Of a stretch of DNA of 32,000 bases, positions 18,101 to 23,972 are shown piece after piece. The notes under the pieces were generated by a model, which saw nothing but the letters and a program-made list of their open reading frames with translations, searched no databases and was not told where the DNA came from. The DNA comes from an uncultured Candidatus Saccharibacteria bacterium (GTDB taxonomy: Bacteria; Patescibacteriota; Minisyncoccia; UBA11713; 2-01-FULL-45-33). Position 1 is the stretch's first letter. Every line of letters begins with the position of its first letter. A program made the position numbers and the translations under genes. The DNA lies in contig CAYIWH010000007.1 in assembly GCA_964367075.1 (NCBI GenBank), positions 185 through 32,184 on the forward strand, read 5' to 3'.

Positions 18101-18589
18101 ATGGACGAAAAAATAAAAATCGGATGGTTTTCTTTTTCGTGCTGTGAGGACAGTACTATTGTGTTTACGGAAATAATGAACGACCATTGGCAAGATTGGA
18201 AAAAAATGTTTGATTTTAGGCACGTCAGAGTTTTAAAATCGCACAATATTTTAGACTCTCTCGATGTTGCTTTTATTGAAGGGGCAATCGCTTCAGATGA
18301 GCATACCGCCAAAGTCAAAGAAATTCGTGAAAAGTCAAAGATTGTAGTAGCCATTGGCGCGTGCGCAGTTGTAGGTATGCCCGCAGGTCAGCGTAATTTT
18401 TTTACTGAAGGACAAAAAAAAGAAATTGAATTTCTTATCGCACGATTTAATGCTCTTCCAAAGGTTTTGAAGCTCTCAGACGTTATCAAAGTGGATGCGG
18501 AAGTTGGTGGATGCCCAATGGACCCAAATAAATTTTTGGAGGCGGTTAATGGCATTGTAACTACTTTAAAAAATCCAGCTCCAAAATAA
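18101..18589 (+). CDS. [NiFe]-hydrogenase small subunit, short soluble type (group 3 / sulfhydrogenase delta-like)
   Basis: IGWFSFSCCEDS...AFIEGAI...VAIGACAVVGMPAGQRN...VGGCPMD: NuoB/20-kDa-like proximal-cluster cysteines in a ~160-aa protein. Confidence 0.8.
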   Translation: MDEKIKIGWFSFSCCEDSTIVFTEIMNDHWQDWKKMFDFRHVRVLKSHNILDSLDVAFIEGAIASDEHTAKVKEIREKSKIVVAIGACAVVGMPAGQRNFFTEGQKKEIEFLIARFNALPKVLKLSDVIKVDAEVGGCPMDPNKFLEAVNGIVTTLKNPAPK

Positions 18590-18590
18590 T

Positions 18591-19706
18591 ATGATTACTG
18601 GGCTCACCGCGTTTTCTTACCAAAATATTGCAAAACCAATATTTTTTTTAATTGATCCGGAAAAAGTACACGACAATATGACAAGGCTTGGAGGGAGTCT
18701 CGGCGGCAGCAAAATGATGGTTTCGCTTTTAGCGCGCGCGTTTAATTTTGAAAACCAGATCTTGGAACAAAAAATTTGGAATATAAATTTTAAAAATCCA
18801 GTCGGACTTGCAGCCGGCCTTGATAAAAATGCAAGGCTTACCCAAATATTACCGTCTTTGGGATTTGGATTTGAAGAGATTGGCTCGATTACTTTGGAAG
18901 AAAGCGAAGGCAATCCTCGTCCTCGATTGAGCCGATTGCCTCAAAGCCAAGGGCTTGTTGTAAATTATGGCCTTGCCAACATGGGCGCGGAAAAAATATT
19001 AAAACATCTTTCTGCTAAAAACCACTCATTCCCGATTGGCATTAGCATAGCAAAAACAAATTCTCCGCGCACCGCCGATAAGCAATCAGGAATTGATGAT
19101 TATGTAAAATGTTTTCAAAAAGTAGTGCAAAGCAATTTGGGCAATTACATTACTATAAATATAAGCTGTCCAAATGCGTACGGAGGAGAACCATTTACTA
19201 AACCGCAAGATCTGGACGACTTGCTTGATGTTTTGTATAAAATTTCAAACAAAAAACCTATTGCAATAAAAATGCCGGCTGACGTGAGCACAGAAGAATT
19301 TCACGCACTGCTTTTAGTATGTAAGAAATACAAAGTGAATGGAATTATATTGTCCAATTTAACGAAACAAAGAGAGTCGCCGTGTATATCGCAAAAAGAA
19401 ATTAAAAACGCAATACCAAAAGGAGGTATTAGCGGAAAGCCTTGTTGGAATAAGTCCAATCAATTGATACAATATGCTTATAAGAATTTTAAAGACGATT
19501 TTACAATTATTGGTTGTGGTGGTATTTTTTCTGCCGAAGACGCGTACATCAAAATACGGCTTGGCGCGTCTTTAGTACAATTGATTACCGGTCTTATTTT
19601 TAAGGGACCACAGCTTGTATGTCAAATAAATCAAGGACTTGCGTCTTTATTGAGAAAGGACGGATTTAATAACATAAAAGAAGCGATCGGCGCAGATAAT
19701 AAATAA
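18591..19706 (+). CDS. pyrD: Dihydroorotate dehydrogenase, class-2-like architecture
   Basis: FKNPVGLAAGLDKN, GFGFEEIGSIT, PRPRLSRL, VVNYGLANMG, ITINISCPNA, ILSNLT, GGISGKP, IIGCGGIFSAEDAY, GASLVQLITGLIFKGPQLV. Colinear with E. coli PyrD including the N-terminal extension. Confidence 0.85.
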   Translation: MITGLTAFSYQNIAKPIFFLIDPEKVHDNMTRLGGSLGGSKMMVSLLARAFNFENQILEQKIWNINFKNPVGLAAGLDKNARLTQILPSLGFGFEEIGSITLEESEGNPRPRLSRLPQSQGLVVNYGLANMGAEKILKHLSAKNHSFPIGISIAKTNSPRTADKQSGIDDYVKCFQKVVQSNLGNYITINISCPNAYGGEPFTKPQDLDDLLDVLYKISNKKPIAIKMPADVSTEEFHALLLVCKKYKVNGIILSNLTKQRESPCISQKEIKNAIPKGGISGKPCWNKSNQLIQYAYKNFKDDFTIIGCGGIFSAEDAYIKIRLGASLVQLITGLIFKGPQLVCQINQGLASLLRKDGFNNIKEAIGADNK

Positions 19707-19710
19707 AACT

Positions 19711-21000
19711 ATGCATACTATAGATTTAAAATTTGATCATTTTACAAAAGTTGAGGGTGCGGCAACATTGGATGTAAAAATCCGTGACGGAAAGGTAGAG
19801 GACGTTCATTTTAAAATAGAAGAATATAAAAGATTTTTTACAAAGGCGATAGAAGGCAAACCAATCATCGCTCTTCCACAGCTTCTTTCAAGAATTTGCG
19901 GCACATGTTCCAATGCACATATTTTGTGCAGTATTGAGGCGTGTGAACACGCTTTGGATATTGAGCCATCAGAGCAAACAAAGCTTTTGAGGCGACTTAC
20001 AATGTATGGTTTAAATATTCGCGATCATGCTTTGCATTTGTATCTTTTTGCAATGCCGGATATTTATGGTAAAGATGCTTTTTTGGATTTTGACGAAAAT
20101 GATTCAGAGCAACATCAGCTTTTGCACGATGCTTTTGAAATGAAAGCGGCAGGAAATTATTTGGCAACGATCATAGCGGGCCGAAGCGTGCACGCGACCT
20201 ATCCTACAATCGGAGGATTTACTCATTTTCCAAGCGCTGAAGAAATCGCAGAGGCAATCAAAAAAATGGAAAACATTAGGCCGGCTGTTTTGCGTCTTAT
20301 TGAAATATTCAAAAAAGCACCATTTCATTTTGATAGAAAAACAAGTTTTATGGCACTTGTGCCGAAAGATGTATATGGTTTTATTGACGGAGTTATAAAA
20401 ACTGACGACGGCGAAACAATAGAAGAAAAAGATTATCGAGATCATTTGGAGAGAGTGGTACTACCGTATTCTCAAGCGTCTGCGTATAAACACAAAAGAG
20501 GCTCGTATATGGTAGGATCTCTTGCAAGAATAAATCTTGCAAAAAATTTGTTGCACGAAAAAACAAAAGAATCTTTGTGGACCACATTAGATATTTTTCC
20601 ATCTACGGATATTTTTGCTAACAATATCGCGCAAGCAATTGAAATTTTGCATTCTTTGGACCACGCAATAGAGCTTTTAAAATCAAACACATTTGCACAA
20701 GAAGAGATTATAAAAAAAGAGTCTAGGGAAGCGACTGGCGTTGGAGTTGTAGAAGCGCCTCGCGGGACTTTGTATCATAAATATGATTTAGGAAAAGATG
20801 GGCTTGTGAAAAGCGGGGAAGTAATAGTACCCACAGGACAAAATCAAGTAAATATTGAAGAAGATATATTTGTGCTTGTGCAAAATCTTCTCCCTAATAC
20901 ATCAAAAGAAAAAATCCAATTCGAAATAGAAAAACTAATTCGCGCTTACGATCCATGCATGTCCTGTGCCGCACATTTTTTGAAAGTTAATTGGGAATAA
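19711..21000 (+). CDS. [NiFe]-hydrogenase large (catalytic) subunit
   Basis: N-terminal Ni-binding motif RICGTCSNAH and C-terminal DPCMSCAAH, followed by a 7-aa tail (FLKVNWE). Confidence 0.9.
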   Translation: MHTIDLKFDHFTKVEGAATLDVKIRDGKVEDVHFKIEEYKRFFTKAIEGKPIIALPQLLSRICGTCSNAHILCSIEACEHALDIEPSEQTKLLRRLTMYGLNIRDHALHLYLFAMPDIYGKDAFLDFDENDSEQHQLLHDAFEMKAAGNYLATIIAGRSVHATYPTIGGFTHFPSAEEIAEAIKKMENIRPAVLRLIEIFKKAPFHFDRKTSFMALVPKDVYGFIDGVIKTDDGETIEEKDYRDHLERVVLPYSQASAYKHKRGSYMVGSLARINLAKNLLHEKTKESLWTTLDIFPSTDIFANNIAQAIEILHSLDHAIELLKSNTFAQEEIIKKESREATGVGVVEAPRGTLYHKYDLGKDGLVKSGEVIVPTGQNQVNIEEDIFVLVQNLLPNTSKEKIQFEIEKLIRAYDPCMSCAAHFLKVNWE

Positions 21001-21024
21001 ATAATTTTGAAAAAGGATGACAAA

Positions 21025-21045
21025 ATCGTATCAAAATGATACGAT
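21025..21045. promoter_or_regulatory. Inverted repeat ATCGTATC-N5-GATACGAT plus a third half-site GATACGA (21060-21066) just upstream of fic; candidate operator
   Basis: Perfect 8-bp arms read from the sequence. The downstream protein starts with a winged-helix-like domain. Confidence 0.4.
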
Positions 21046-21068
21046 AAATATGCTCAAATGATACGAAA

Positions 21069-22124
21069 ATGATTAAAATTAGCCAAAAACAACAAGAAAT
21101 CATATTAATTCTTCTTAAAAAGGAAGGCATGAGTTCCTCGGCTATTTATGCTGAGCTGACTAGTGGTGGCGCACAAACTTCATTAGTTACTATAAAGCGC
21201 TCTCTATCAAAAATGCAATCGCAAGGCATTTTGAAGGTTTCTGGAAGGGGACGAGCCACAAATTATGATGTTTCTGTAACAGGAAGAATTTTTATTGATA
21301 TAAACGCGCATGAGTATTGTTCTATTGATCCAGACAAAAGATTTGGTATGAAAAATTTTAATTTTGAACTTTTTGCAAATATTCCATCTCAAATATTTTC
21401 AGATGACGAATCAAAACAGCTTTATAATTCTACTCAGCAATATTTACAAAGAACAAAAAATATTTCAGTTACTATACAAAAAAAAGAACTGGAAAGATTG
21501 ATTATTGAGCTTGCGTGGAAATCTTCCAAAATTGAAGGTAACACATATACTCTTCTTGATACAGAAAAGCTTATTGTAAAAAACGAAGAAGCTGTGGGTC
21601 ATGATAAAAAAGAGACGACTATGATTATTAATCACAAAAACGCCTTTAACTTTATTCACGACAATTCAGATATTTTTAAAATTTTAACACATGCAAATTT
21701 GGAAAAACTACATTCAATTCTGGTACAAAATTTAAGTGTTGGCATTGGATTGCGTCAAAAACCAGTTGGGGTCATAGGATCTAAATACCAACCACTTGAT
21801 AATTTACGTCAGATTTCAGAAGCAATAGAAGCGCTCTCGGCGACAATTACGAAAATAAAATCACCATATGCCAAATCTTTAGTTGCGTTGCTCGGTATTA
21901 GTTATATTCAACCATTTGAAGACGGAAACAAAAGAACAGCTCGTTTAATGGCAAACGCATTGCTTTTGGCATATGGGCTTGCACCACTTTCATACAGAAG
22001 TGTTGATGAAACCGAATATAGAGAAGCAACAATTGTTTTTTATGAAATAAATTCATTAATGTCGTTGAAAAAAATATTTATTGACCAATATGATTTTGCC
22101 GCAAAAACATATACGGTAAAATAA
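21069..22124 (+). CDS. Fic/Doc-family protein with N-terminal wHTH-like domain; active-site motif QPFEDGNKRTAR (Gln in place of the catalytic His)
   Basis: Fic core motif at 21909-21944. An inhibitory-helix-like SSKIEGN ((S/T)xxxE(G/N)) lies at 21522-21542. N-terminal SSAIYAEL...LVTIKRSLSKMQSQGIL resembles a wHTH. Confidence 0.85.
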   Translation: MIKISQKQQEIILILLKKEGMSSSAIYAELTSGGAQTSLVTIKRSLSKMQSQGILKVSGRGRATNYDVSVTGRIFIDINAHEYCSIDPDKRFGMKNFNFELFANIPSQIFSDDESKQLYNSTQQYLQRTKNISVTIQKKELERLIIELAWKSSKIEGNTYTLLDTEKLIVKNEEAVGHDKKETTMIINHKNAFNFIHDNSDIFKILTHANLEKLHSILVQNLSVGIGLRQKPVGVIGSKYQPLDNLRQISEAIEALSATITKIKSPYAKSLVALLGISYIQPFEDGNKRTARLMANALLLAYGLAPLSYRSVDETEYREATIVFYEINSLMSLKKIFIDQYDFAAKTYTVK

Positions 22125-22181
22125 ATGTATTATCCATGTATGTCCTGCGCCGCACACTTTCTTAAAATGAATTGGAAATAG
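22125..22181 (+). pseudogene. Orphan copy of the last ~17 codons of a [NiFe]-hydrogenase large-subunit gene
   Basis: ATG TAT TAT CCA TGT ATG TCC TGC GCC GCA CAC TTT CTT AAA ATG AAT TGG AAA TAG = MYYPCMSCAAHFLKMNWK*. Starts directly after the fic stop codon. Confidence 0.7.
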
Positions 22182-22283
22182 ACAAATAAATTTTAAAACT
22201 ATACAATTGACTTTTTTAGTTAATAATATAGTCTGAAGGAAGAGGCGCACATTAACAATTCTGCGCCAAAGGAAGGGGTTAAA

Positions 22284-22580
22284 ATGGCAACAAAAAAAGA
22301 TAAAATAAGATCTGATTTATTTTTTAATCCCCACAAATGGTCAATAGAAATAATTAAATATAAAGGTAAATTTCCCAAAGAACAATACCCTGGATACCGT
22401 CGCATTCCATCACTAGCCATGCTTGTTCTGGGACCACTTATGGGAGGAGCATTTGTAATTTTTTTGCCCGTATTGGGTTTTGTATTGATTACAGGTTTAA
22501 CTATTAAGAAATTAGTACAAATGGCAAAACAAGTTGGAATTCCATATAAGGTAATAAGGGTAAAATCTGAAGCAAAATAA
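22284..22580 (+). CDS. Small membrane protein, hypothetical
   Basis: Good SD (AAGGAAGGGG, 6 nt before the ATG), one or two TM helices (LAMLVLGPLMGGAFVIFLPVLGFVLITGL), followed by a terminator. Confidence 0.5.
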   Translation: MATKKDKIRSDLFFNPHKWSIEIIKYKGKFPKEQYPGYRRIPSLAMLVLGPLMGGAFVIFLPVLGFVLITGLTIKKLVQMAKQVGIPYKVIRVKSEAK

Positions 22581-22591
22581 TAAAACATCAT

Positions 22592-22612
22592 GCTCTCGAA
22601 AGAGAGCTTTTT
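22592..22612 (+). terminator. Rho-independent terminator
   Basis: GCTCTC-GAAA-GAGAGC followed by TTTTT. Confidence 0.7.
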
Positions 22613-22613
22613 A

Positions 22614-22985
22614 TTATGAAAAGCCTAAAATAGGAAAAATCTTTTCTATTGCTTCTTTTTCAGAAGTTGTCGAGGGAACGCCAATTATTTTTATTTTTTT
22701 TAATTTGTCGAGTTTGTCTAAAAATTTTAAATTGGCATATACATCAAAATCGTGCATTGTGATATTTGGCGCTTGAGAAAAATCTTTGATGCTATCAAAT
22801 ATAGTTATTTTGTCTATACCAAGCACCGTATCAATAATAATAAGCCCATCTGGAATATCCCAATCTTCATTTGGATCTTTTATTTCAAAATCAATTTTTG
22901 GGAACATTTTTTTCAGCTCCGGAAGTATTTTTAACGGAGTTGAATCAAAGTCTAATTCCCAATTGCCAAAAACAAAAACTTTCAT
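22614..22985 (-). CDS. Hydrogenase maturation endopeptidase-like protein (HycI/HybD family)
   Basis: VFVFGNWELDFDS, LIIIDTV and ITMHDF align with the GNxxxxDD / D / H metal-ligand positions of HycI/HybD. Size is ~120 aa. Confidence 0.55.
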   Translation of the reverse strand: MKVFVFGNWELDFDSTPLKILPELKKMFPKIDFEIKDPNEDWDIPDGLIIIDTVLGIDKITIFDSIKDFSQAPNITMHDFDVYANLKFLDKLDKLKKIKIIGVPSTTSEKEAIEKIFPILGFS

Positions 22986-23039
22986 ACTTTATATTTTATT
23001 AGTGTGAATTACAAAGCATCACTCAACAGTACTTTTTCT

Positions 23040-23132
23040 GGAACCTTTGCATGGTATGCAAAGGTTCCGTAATTTTCTGACTGAAAATTCGCTTCTTCCT
23101 GCCTGCCGGTAGGCAGGCTCGCTCCGTCGAGC
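23040..23132. repeat. Cluster of three GC-rich hairpins in a 200-bp spacer
   Basis: Perfect 13-bp stem GGAACCTTTGCAT-GGT-ATGCAAAGGTTCC (23040-23068); GCCTGCC-GGTA-GGCAGGC (23101-23118); GCTCG-CTCCGT-CGAGC (23117-23132). Confidence 0.5.
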
Positions 23133-23186
23133 TACAAAAATCCCAAAAAAAATACTGTTTTCGTGATTGTTTGTCACTCAAAGCTT

Positions 23187-23972
23187 TCATATATTTTCAT
23201 TCGCGAGCGCAATGCTCTTTAGCGTATAATACTCAATTGTTTTTGCCTTTTTCTCACTTATCACTTCGCATGGCACGCCCCAATGAATAGAAACAATATC
23301 ACCGATTTTCACATCGTCTATTTCAATGCTGGATTCCAGAGAGCGGGCTATTTTGCGTTTTTCAATATTTCCCAGTTTAAGCTTATTTTTAATAAAAATT
23401 AATGACTTTGTCGCAACAGTGATAAATGGTCCGTCTATTTTTTCTACTTTGCCAGAGCTTATTCTACATTCGTTCATACTTTCTAATGTGTGCGCTTCTT
23501 CTAAATGACCTGTGCGTTTCCAAATATTAAAAACGTGAAAAGAATGGTGCGGAAGAGCACCGTTTTTTATTTTTTCTTTTATTTTTTCAAAAGATTTTGA
23601 GCCAACTTTGTTTTTTATATTTTGATCTTCTAAAAGATGTCTATAAAAAGATTGTTTGTCAATTTTTTCTAACAAATTATTTCCTATCCAATATGCTTCC
23701 ACCACCCTAACATCAAAAGGGTCGCTGATTTTATTTGCTCTGGCTATATAATTAAGATAAGGATACATTGTTTGAAATTGTTTCAACAATGTCTCAATGC
23801 TGGGATCCGAAATTCCCTCTTTTATATATGACAAAATTTCTTCATTCGCATCAGGGCCACAATAATGAAGCCGATTTGGCCCAAATGCGTATTTTGCACA
23901 AAGAATTATTCCGTCTTGTTTAAGAAGAGAAATATTTTCCTCGTTTTTTGTATATTGAATATATTGTTTCAA
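23187..23972 (-). CDS. Hypothetical protein with a C-terminal HypC/HupF-like segment
   Basis: C-terminal ECRISSGKVEKIDG...VKIGDIVSIHWGVPCEVISEKKA parallels HypC (MCIGVPGQI..IDG...G.WVLVHVGFA...I.E.EA). The start is a TTG and overlaps the upstream gene by 53 nt, so it is uncertain. Confidence 0.45.
   Translation of the reverse strand: MKQYIQYTKNEENISLLKQDGIILCAKYAFGPNRLHYCGPDANEEILSYIKEGISDPSIETLLKQFQTMYPYLNYIARANKISDPFDVRVVEAYWIGNNLLEKIDKQSFYRHLLEDQNIKNKVGSKSFEKIKEKIKNGALPHHSFHVFNIWKRTGHLEEAHTLESMNECRISSGKVEKIDGPFITVATKSLIFIKNKLKLGNIEKRKIARSLESSIEIDDVKIGDIVSIHWGVPCEVISEKKAKTIEYYTLKSIALANENI

Follow-up and report, generated by a model that had tools for sequence, protein, structure and literature searches.

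In a 32,000-nt stretch of contig CAYIWH010000007.1 (the window), we have found a Fic gene with its own control region lying at the very end of hydL, the gene for the large subunit of a [NiFe]-hydrogenase, where it is bracketed by two copies of the end of that gene. hydL (19711–21000, plus strand, 429 aa) is intact. It has the PF00374 domain (Pfam, E = 7.5e-29), the C-terminal DPCxxCxxH Ni-binding motif and a short tail, and its 3′ end reads ...DPCMSCAAHFLKVNWE-TAA. The last 16 codons and the stop codon, with ~13 nt of 3′ flank, make up the left direct repeat (copy 1, 20950–21013, plus strand), which is the functional gene end. The right direct repeat (copy 2, 22131–22198, plus strand) is an orphaned hydL end, YPCMSCAAHFLKMNWK-TAG, followed by the native 3′ flank. 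Over 51 nt the two copies are identical at 41 positions and differ at 10, and both read in frame as (D/Y)PCMSCAAHFLK(V/M)NW(E/K)-stop; these features had been pointed out in an initial annotation made from the sequence alone, and reading of the sequence confirms them. The DNA that separates the copies contains nothing beyond a promoter-like site, a palindromic operator with a third half-site, and the open reading frame (ORF) of a winged helix-turn-helix (wHTH)-Fic protein (21069–22124, plus strand, 351 aa). From repeat start to repeat start the distance is 1,181 bp.

A repeat search over 19500–23200 returned this pair as the longest direct repeat (20951–21004 against 22132–22185, 54 nt, 81% identical), and a gapped alignment lengthens it to 67 columns at 79% identity (20951–21013 against 22132–22198). 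The ten differences are spread over the 51 nt, the longest identical run being 8 nt. The ungapped score (+1/−1) is 34, whereas in a null set of 150 mismatched pairs of upstream and downstream flanks the mean is 9.7, the 99th percentile 17.5 and the highest score 22; the gapped score is 37, against a maximum of 20 for mismatched flank pairs. Both scores lie beyond the null maxima and the repeat is therefore more than a chance resemblance. Together with an ATG at 22125, which overlaps the stop codon of the Fic gene (TAAATG), copy 2 forms an 18-codon ORF (22125–22181; MYYPCMSCAAHFLKMNWK), and translational coupling at this overlap could yield a peptide that imitates the C-terminus of the hydrogenase.

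An assembly artefact does not account for the junctions. Seven contigs that are 100% identical to the window, from five ENA assemblies (replicates of Hainich well H43) and two Logan assemblies, reach or cross the left junction, and six of these run on across the right junction. Since independent assemblies repeat the junctions, the chimeric assembly that the initial annotation had named as a possible refutation is excluded. Decay of a tandem paralogue, named there as another, is excluded as well: a search for the motif PCxSCxxH turned up no further piece of a hydL end in the locus. The hydrogenase-like sequence of copy 2 is also confined to 51–67 nt, beginning 6 nt past the Fic stop codon, and a related contig, L038, shows the single-copy state (see below). 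Nothing beyond the existence of a second hydL-like end speaks for a decaying second hydrogenase gene or for a chimera, and, with contigs of at least seven assemblies being 100% identical across the junctions that they cover, we give these two explanations practically no weight. A further Logan contig, L010, covers only 20956–22147 and so ends inside both copies. It was considered as the signal of a circle or of a branch in the assembly graph, and was rejected as such, its ends not overlapping and low coverage explaining it equally well. ENA contig L003 tracks the window to 21508, inside the Fic gene, and then continues for 158 nt in unrelated sequence to the contig end (L003 7799–7956); this tail is probably a contig-end misassembly rather than a variant.

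The locus without the insert is seen in L038, an 818-bp contig in which a single hydL end (...DPCMSCAAHFLKIAWE-TAG) runs directly into ACAAATAAATTTT..., that is, into the sequence that follows copy 2 in the window. Past the hydL end this contig has a small gene, orf98, and then the protease gene, with no Fic gene, and from the TAG of copy 2 onward the window is collinear with it. An empty site of this kind had been predicted, in which the MNWK version of the gene end would lead straight into the gene at 22284; L038 does pass from a single hydL end into that gene, but its hydL tail is IAWE, not MNWK. In L027, the closest syntenic locus with DNA (hydL 90% identical), the gene order is the same and hydL converges directly on a protease-like gene, and the hydL–protease arrangement without Fic is also found in six more genomes of the candidate phyla radiation (CPR). 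Relative to L027 the extra DNA of the window amounts to ~1.6 kb, the orphan gene at 22284–22580 (orf98) included. The insert of ~1.1 kb proposed at the outset therefore agrees with the interval between the copies, where only the promoter/operator and Fic are found, but not with the whole difference from L027. Because it is present at the Fic-free site in L038, orf98 is older than the Fic insertion, and the history of the locus has two steps, the orphan gene first and then the Fic unit into the final codons of hydL. That the insert sits at the extreme end of hydL between two gene-end copies, as first described, is borne out. The contig of the hydL protein P0003 (88% identical, ending in VNWK and followed by a 63-aa ORF) would be a second candidate for an empty site.

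Any two of copy 1, copy 2 and the L038 end differ at 10/51 positions, so that the three are equally far apart. An attempt to polarise the copies by means of L038 and 15 other hydL ends was uninformative for this reason.

The control region of the cassette (21017–21068, plus strand) begins with a promoter-like ATGACA-17-TACGAT at 21017–21045, of which the −35-like ATGACA occupies 21017–21022. A perfect palindrome, TCGTATCA-AAA-TGATACGA, with an N3 spacer, lies at 21026–21044 and overlaps the −10 element, and a third half-site, TGATACGA, is found at 21059–21066, just 5′ of the start codon. The encoded protein matches Pfam PF02661 (E = 1.7e-12) and has an N-terminal winged helix with weak hits to the FUR and Penicillinase_R wHTH families. 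As a predicted regulator, this winged helix matches the conserved palindromic operator in concept only, and the cassette promoter is presumably autoregulated.

The Fic protein resembles the class II Fic proteins (FICD/HYPE, SoFic) in its Fic fold and in the inhibitory motif S-x-x-x-E-G, the class II (S/T)xxxE(G/N) motif, which is present N-terminal to the Fic core. Here the inhibitory helix reads SSKIEGN, of which S152-S-K-I-E156-G157 is invariant and aligns with TVAIEGN of FICD. It differs from them in the N-terminal winged helix with its conserved palindromic operator and in the active site, where the motif QPFEDGNKRTAR (21909–21944, residues 281–292) departs from the canonical HxFx(D/E)GNGRxxR: Gln, aligned with His363 of FICD, replaces the catalytic His, and GNK replaces GNG. 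This motif is invariant in 37/37 aligned family members. Given the Gln and GNK, the AMPylase chemistry is uncertain and may be non-canonical or lost. An AlphaFold model of the protein has a mean pLDDT of 87.6, and its best structural matches in the PDB are FICD and SoFic (for FICD, Foldseek probability 1.0 and query-normalised TM-score 0.59). The PADLOC model of SoFic, which is a single-gene defence system in the PADLOC list, is matched with E = 2.2e-17. A toxin- or defence-like selfish function is plausible.

The Fic gene belongs to a very large, well-conserved patescibacterial family, with 6,798 matches at E ≤ 1e-10; the 120 best are ~350 aa long and 61–76% identical to the query, the closest of all being 76% identical. 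A scan of metagenomes with the family alignment gave 80 loci. The upstream architecture is shared in 77 of the 78 loci with enough upstream sequence. It comprises a −35 TTG..., a palindrome (A)ATCGTATCA-N3-TGATACGAT and, right at the start codon, the proximal half-site TGATACGA, with a palindrome-to-ATG spacing that is most often 24 nt, and the conserved core starts at the −35 box. With its own upstream architecture at nearly every locus, the unit therefore carries its own promoter. The neighbours almost never recur, 132 flanking ORFs falling into 119 clusters. Neither a hydrogenase neighbour nor a PCxSCxxH fragment was found among the ~80 other cassette loci, and the earlier suggestion that the cassette targets a conserved hydrogenase motif has to be given up, the targets being unrelated gene ends.

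The same cassette can be followed between unrelated surroundings. A stretch of 1,325 bp is 98.6% identical between L075/L083 and L077 (3757–5081 in L075 and 3757–5081 in L077), whose flanks are unrelated, and it has a sharp right border 25 nt past the stop codon. Between L075 and L077, 15 of the 19 mismatches fall within the leftmost 65 nt (~77% identity there), and this mismatch-rich segment looks like a recombination boundary or an older shared segment. Across the loci the GC content of the Fic gene follows that of its flanks (r = 0.76), and in the window the Fic region, at 31–33% GC beside flanks of 29–40%, shows no clear anomaly of base composition. Complete Fic genes are found on contigs of 1.1–1.4 kb for at least 17 of the top 120 matches, compared with 5 for hydL (about three times as many); such short Fic contigs are what one would expect if, owing to its several contexts, the cassette makes assemblies break at its borders.

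Direct repeats about the Fic gene are not peculiar to the window. We compared the upstream and downstream DNA of each Fic gene, with mismatched flank pairs as the null. Repeats scoring at least 35, where the null maximum is 20, were found in 13 of 78 non-redundant loci; they are 39–188 nt long and 69–100% identical, and they tightly enclose only the Fic unit of ~1.1–1.3 kb. Several more loci score 21–24. With an ungapped score of at least 18 as the threshold, 16/82 Fic loci have a repeat and 0/49 control ORFs from the same loci (Fisher P = 5e-4). Two more contexts were added: L129 has a clear repeat with a score of 36 (46 nt, 89% identical), and L139 scores 21, just over the null maximum of 20, its repeated segment looking like the 5′ end of the neighbouring malic-enzyme gene in decayed form. 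The surroundings of the Fic gene in L129 (P0228; 900–6600) are rich in defence and mobile genes, with an rve-type integrase, AbiEii and helix-turn-helix genes nearby. The repeated segment differs from locus to locus and typically corresponds to a promoter region or to the 5′ or 3′ end of the gene next door, which may lie on either strand. In every case that gene is completed by one of the copies and so kept intact. The spacing is variable, being 55–393 nt from the left repeat end to the start codon and 6–141 nt on the right side.

There is no sign that the cassette moves by an enzyme of its own. No integrase or transposase is present among the ORFs of the 32-kb window scanned with Pfam, in agreement with the initial annotation, and no conserved termini or inverted repeats were seen across the family loci. 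The cassette is thus not a classical DNA transposon or insertion sequence, since it has neither transposase nor terminal inverted repeats, and its repeats of 39–188 nt are not of fixed length. The integration of e14 and phage 21 into icd was reportedly described by Hill et al. in 1989. Like the Fic cassette, these elements at E. coli icd, and likewise the tRNA-targeting islands, sit in the 3′ end of a gene and supply a replacement end; in e14 the native end, once displaced, survives as the icdC stub beyond the element, most of the differences between the two ends are silent or conservative, and excision recombines them into a chimeric, functional gene (PMC13626634). A structure of this kind is present in the window, and its ends would be of the replacement type; the silent bias, 4 synonymous to 2–3 non-synonymous codons, is not significant at this one locus but is significant across the family (29:12).

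The cassette might accordingly be regarded as the remnant of a larger, integrase-bearing element, a prophage or genomic island that integrated at the 3′ end of hydL with a replacement end and was later deleted down to Fic. The footprint would be that of e14, with icd completed by the element and the icdC stub at its far end (PMC13626634), and some family members do lie in defence- and mobile-gene-rich contexts, such as L129 with its rve integrase and AbiEii. Elements of the e14/icd type, however, are at least 15 kb long and have a site-specific integrase/excisionase, whereas the Fic insert is 1.1 kb without a recombinase, and no tyrosine or serine recombinase domain is present among the window ORFs scanned with Pfam. 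Classical att sites share an identical core, which the Fic repeats do not, 8 nt being the longest identical run in the window. The Fic family also uses many targets, 5′ ends of genes included, unlike the e14/icd type. As the repeats of at least 13 independent loci enclose only the 1.1–1.3-kb Fic unit, the same near-total deletion would be needed each time. Finally, no member of the family was found in the viral contigs of IMG/VR, where the Fic genes are only 27–30% identical, and a phage vector for the cassette was rejected on these grounds. We therefore regard descent from a larger element, one of the two possibilities first put forward, as very unlikely.

The divergence of the repeats tells more about their origin. 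Codon differences between copies were counted in the frames of the long flanking genes at seven loci where these frames are clear. At L090 the 19 codons hold 8 synonymous and 0 non-synonymous differences, and L066 and L065 have 2 and 0 each. The figures are 6 and 4 for L108, 5 and 4 for L071 and 2 and 2, within the gene, for L093. The window has 4 synonymous and 2 (2–3) non-synonymous differences, plus TAA/TAG. In total there are 29 synonymous and 12 non-synonymous differences, or 71% synonymous, compared with about 38% expected if, after duplication, the intact copy was under purifying selection while the stub drifted neutrally (P = 1.8e-5). This excess argues that both copies were functional gene ends for most of their divergence, that is, that two orthologous versions have been brought together. 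The initial annotation had held that the copies diverged as coding sequence. Across the family this is strongly supported by the codon counts; at the window locus taken alone, where the silent bias is not significant, it is only suggestive.

From these data we think it rather probable that the insert is a single-gene cassette (its own promoter/operator and wHTH-Fic, ~1.12 kb), widespread in Patescibacteria, which was inserted with long target duplication by way of host recombination acting on DNA from outside. Along with the Fic gene, a short orthologous gene end would have come from the previous host, and integration by host recombination would have taken place at the orthologous gene of the new one. 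In the window, the ancestral locus was hydL–orf98–protease gene, and the cassette landed inside the last 51–67 nt of hydL, so that the target segment now stands to the left and to the right of the insert. Of these two copies, the left one completes hydL, keeping the DPCxxCxxH end and a stop codon, and the right one is an orphaned stub still bearing the orf98 promoter. The insertion, the empty site, the duplication, its recurrence in the family, the lack of recombinase genes and of defined ends and the mainly synonymous divergence are observed; the route of recombination, delivery by natural transformation and a selfish function of Fic are proposed.

Two routes to such a product can be envisaged. 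In Campbell-type insertion-duplication, known from pneumococcal genetics, integration of a circle by a single crossover duplicates the homologous segment on both sides. A circular form of the cassette could undergo such a single crossover within the gene-end stretch; circles could form by recombination between the repeats, and the junction of the circle would read Fic stop-ATGTAT, a single hybrid repeat and then AGGATGACAAAATCG. Alternatively, homologous pairing on one side could be combined with an illegitimate joint on the other. This is homology-facilitated illegitimate recombination as defined in PMC3240628, which likewise relies on host recombination on short homology and needs no element-encoded enzyme. 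Both processes are laboratory-defined, and would here have to act in Patescibacteria on segments of 40–110 nt at 80–95% identity and as the natural route of a gene family. Because the copies are equidistant and there is no long donor tract upstream, the window does not discriminate between the two routes. Delivery would be by natural transformation; natural competence has been shown experimentally in Saccharibacteria (PMC10187176).

Insertion with long target duplication is said to have been described for restriction-modification gene units by Nobusato et al. in 2000. According to Furuta, Abe & Kobayashi (2010, NAR, PMC2853133), such units, mostly in naturally competent species, insert with variable repeats of more than 30 bp and without other mobile genes. 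The Fic loci are like these cases in several ways. A small selfish or defence-type unit lacks transposase, integrase and inverted repeats; the direct repeats exceed 30 bp, with a length and sequence that depend on the site (39–188 nt for Fic); the repeat is single-copy at the empty site of a relative (here L038); and the repeats often overlap the 3′ end of a neighbouring gene. In every structural respect the Fic cassette is an insertion with long target duplication, and it is the cargo that differs, being a one-gene wHTH-Fic unit, with Patescibacteria as the hosts. A further difference is that many Fic repeat pairs are 79–90% identical and differ mainly synonymously, a feature not seen in the consulted sections of PMC2853133. 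Since the pairs have diverged mainly synonymously, they would be two orthologous gene ends rather than a fresh duplication. A double-strand break of the restriction type made by the cargo itself is less likely for the Fic cassette, and this shifts the explanation towards host recombination.

The main rival is a true long target-site duplication, in which staggered breaks 40–110 nt apart were filled in after insertion of the cassette by a trans-acting enzyme or by break repair. The copies would have been identical at the start and would have diverged afterwards, the synonymous bias having come about when recombination with relatives later exchanged the intact gene for another allele. Repeat identities form a continuum, from 100% (L079) through 94–95% (L066, L065) to 79% (window, L071), as in duplications of increasing age, and the equidistance of copy 1, copy 2 and the L038 end would fit as well. 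The published restriction-modification cases are termed target duplications in PMC2853133, and the diversity of the targets also keeps this explanation alive. On the other hand, a stub free of selection should gather mostly non-synonymous changes, whereas L090 has 8:0 in 19 codons and the pooled ratio is 29:12. The window's differences extend as far as the side of the repeat next to the cassette (TAA vs TAG) and leave almost no homology for an overwriting crossover, which argues against later overwriting of the gene end. Moreover, an enzyme would find no conserved cassette ends to work on. We consider a true target-site duplication possible but rather unlikely.

Several points nevertheless weigh against the transfer of the cassette between orthologous gene ends by host recombination. 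Some repeat pairs match fully or almost fully (L079, 55/55; L066, 94%), which is what one would see after a fresh target duplication, and ~80% of the loci have no repeat. Because nearly every locus has a different neighbour, transfer to orthologous sites is not the only route, and some other step must colonise new sites. Identical Fic proteins, P0155 and P0228, occur on many metagenome contigs, each in essentially one context; this gives no sign of rapid hopping of the cassette, and relocation is therefore slow, on an evolutionary timescale. In the window itself, the equidistance of the copies means that neither the crossover or illegitimate joint nor the native copy can be picked out, and a plain duplication near the time of the split from L038 fits equally well. 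No long imported donor tract is seen in the 225 nt of hydL upstream of the repeat, where identity is 86% to L038 and 81% to L027. A diverged allele that later overwrote the intact gene end could likewise account for the synonymous bias. Lastly, the precedent for competence comes from Saccharibacteria studied elsewhere, and would apply to the window's own lineage only by analogy.

A more radical possibility is that the cassette is an autonomous mobile element of a new kind, whose own DNA-binding, Gln-variant Fic product promotes insertion with long duplication. The Fic protein might act on DNA ends, or might modify a host topoisomerase or recombination protein at the site bound by the wHTH. If true, this would explain why the footprint is on the Fic gene alone and not on its neighbours, at many unrelated CPR sites. 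We think it very improbable.

What appeared to be a curiosity of one locus is an instance of a family-wide pattern, a conserved single-gene Fic cassette that relocates without a recombinase of its own and time and again lands in gene ends, which are kept whole by duplications of 40–110 nt. Insertion with long target duplication thus reaches past restriction-modification systems, and the CPR join its known hosts. New are the Fic gene as cargo, the CPR as hosts and the synonymous divergence of the repeats as a clue to the mechanism; the codon counts suggest that the incoming gene brings an orthologous gene end along. In titles and abstracts of the literature on Fic genes in Patescibacteria we found nothing on Fic mobility, and in those on 'mobile mystery protein' nothing that looked relevant. 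With thousands of family members in public metagenomes and some CPR tractable by natural competence, the mechanism is testable. For annotation, short orphaned gene ends beside accessory genes in CPR metagenome-assembled genomes are scars of true insertions and not mistakes of assembly.

The window is 100% identical to contigs from the 0.1 and 0.2 µm filter fractions of Hainich groundwater well H43, and its matches carry the NCBI protein label 'Patescibacteria group bacterium'. Its hydL is 90% identical to P0002, and CPR homologues with the same C-terminal motif number in the thousands; the C-termini were compared across 120 of the homologues. Before hydL the gene order is ferredoxin, pyridine-nucleotide oxidoreductase, hydrogenase small subunit (18101–18589) and dihydroorotate dehydrogenase (18591–19706), and after it come wHTH-Fic, orf98 and, on the opposite strand, a 123-aa HycI-like gene, DUF6390 and EamA. 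The dihydroorotate dehydrogenase gene separates the two hydrogenase subunit genes, as it does in L027; it is unmatched in the other loci checked, in most of which the subunit genes are adjacent.

orf98 (22284–22580, plus strand, 98 aa) is an orphan small membrane-protein gene outside the Fic cassette. It is absent from L027, and its single homologue found is that in L038 (93% amino acid identity), where 279–679 spans the intergenic region and the gene. The window and L038 versions differ by 22 synonymous and 7 non-synonymous codons, which points to a real gene. The native intergenic region 5′ of it (22179–22283, plus strand) is conserved in L038. It has a promoter-like TAGACA-17-TACAAT, with a −35 that shares bases with the copy 2 stop codon, as well as a GGCGCA...TGCGCC hairpin 5′ of the orf98 ribosome-binding site. 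An Rfam search of 20800–22700 gave nothing above threshold.

The 123-aa gene (22614–22985, minus strand) weakly resembles the HycI maturation protease (E = 0.0067, which falls short of the Pfam cut-off). It directly follows hydL in most related CPR loci (synteny with L011, L012, L018, L022, L026 and L027), and it therefore marks the ancestral right flank. The DUF6390 gene (23187–23972, minus strand) has a weak HypC-like segment at its C-terminus. The two genes are kept directly downstream of hydL in many CPR genomes and may be divergent hydrogenase maturation factors. Away from the hydrogenase locus the ORFs of the window are of housekeeping type (PolA, UvrB, DHQ synthase, Mur ligase and others). 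ARAGORN reported an odd tRNA with a 4-base anticodon (gggg) at 26104–26175, and the segment 26068–26140, which overlaps it, is 86% identical to the end of L027.

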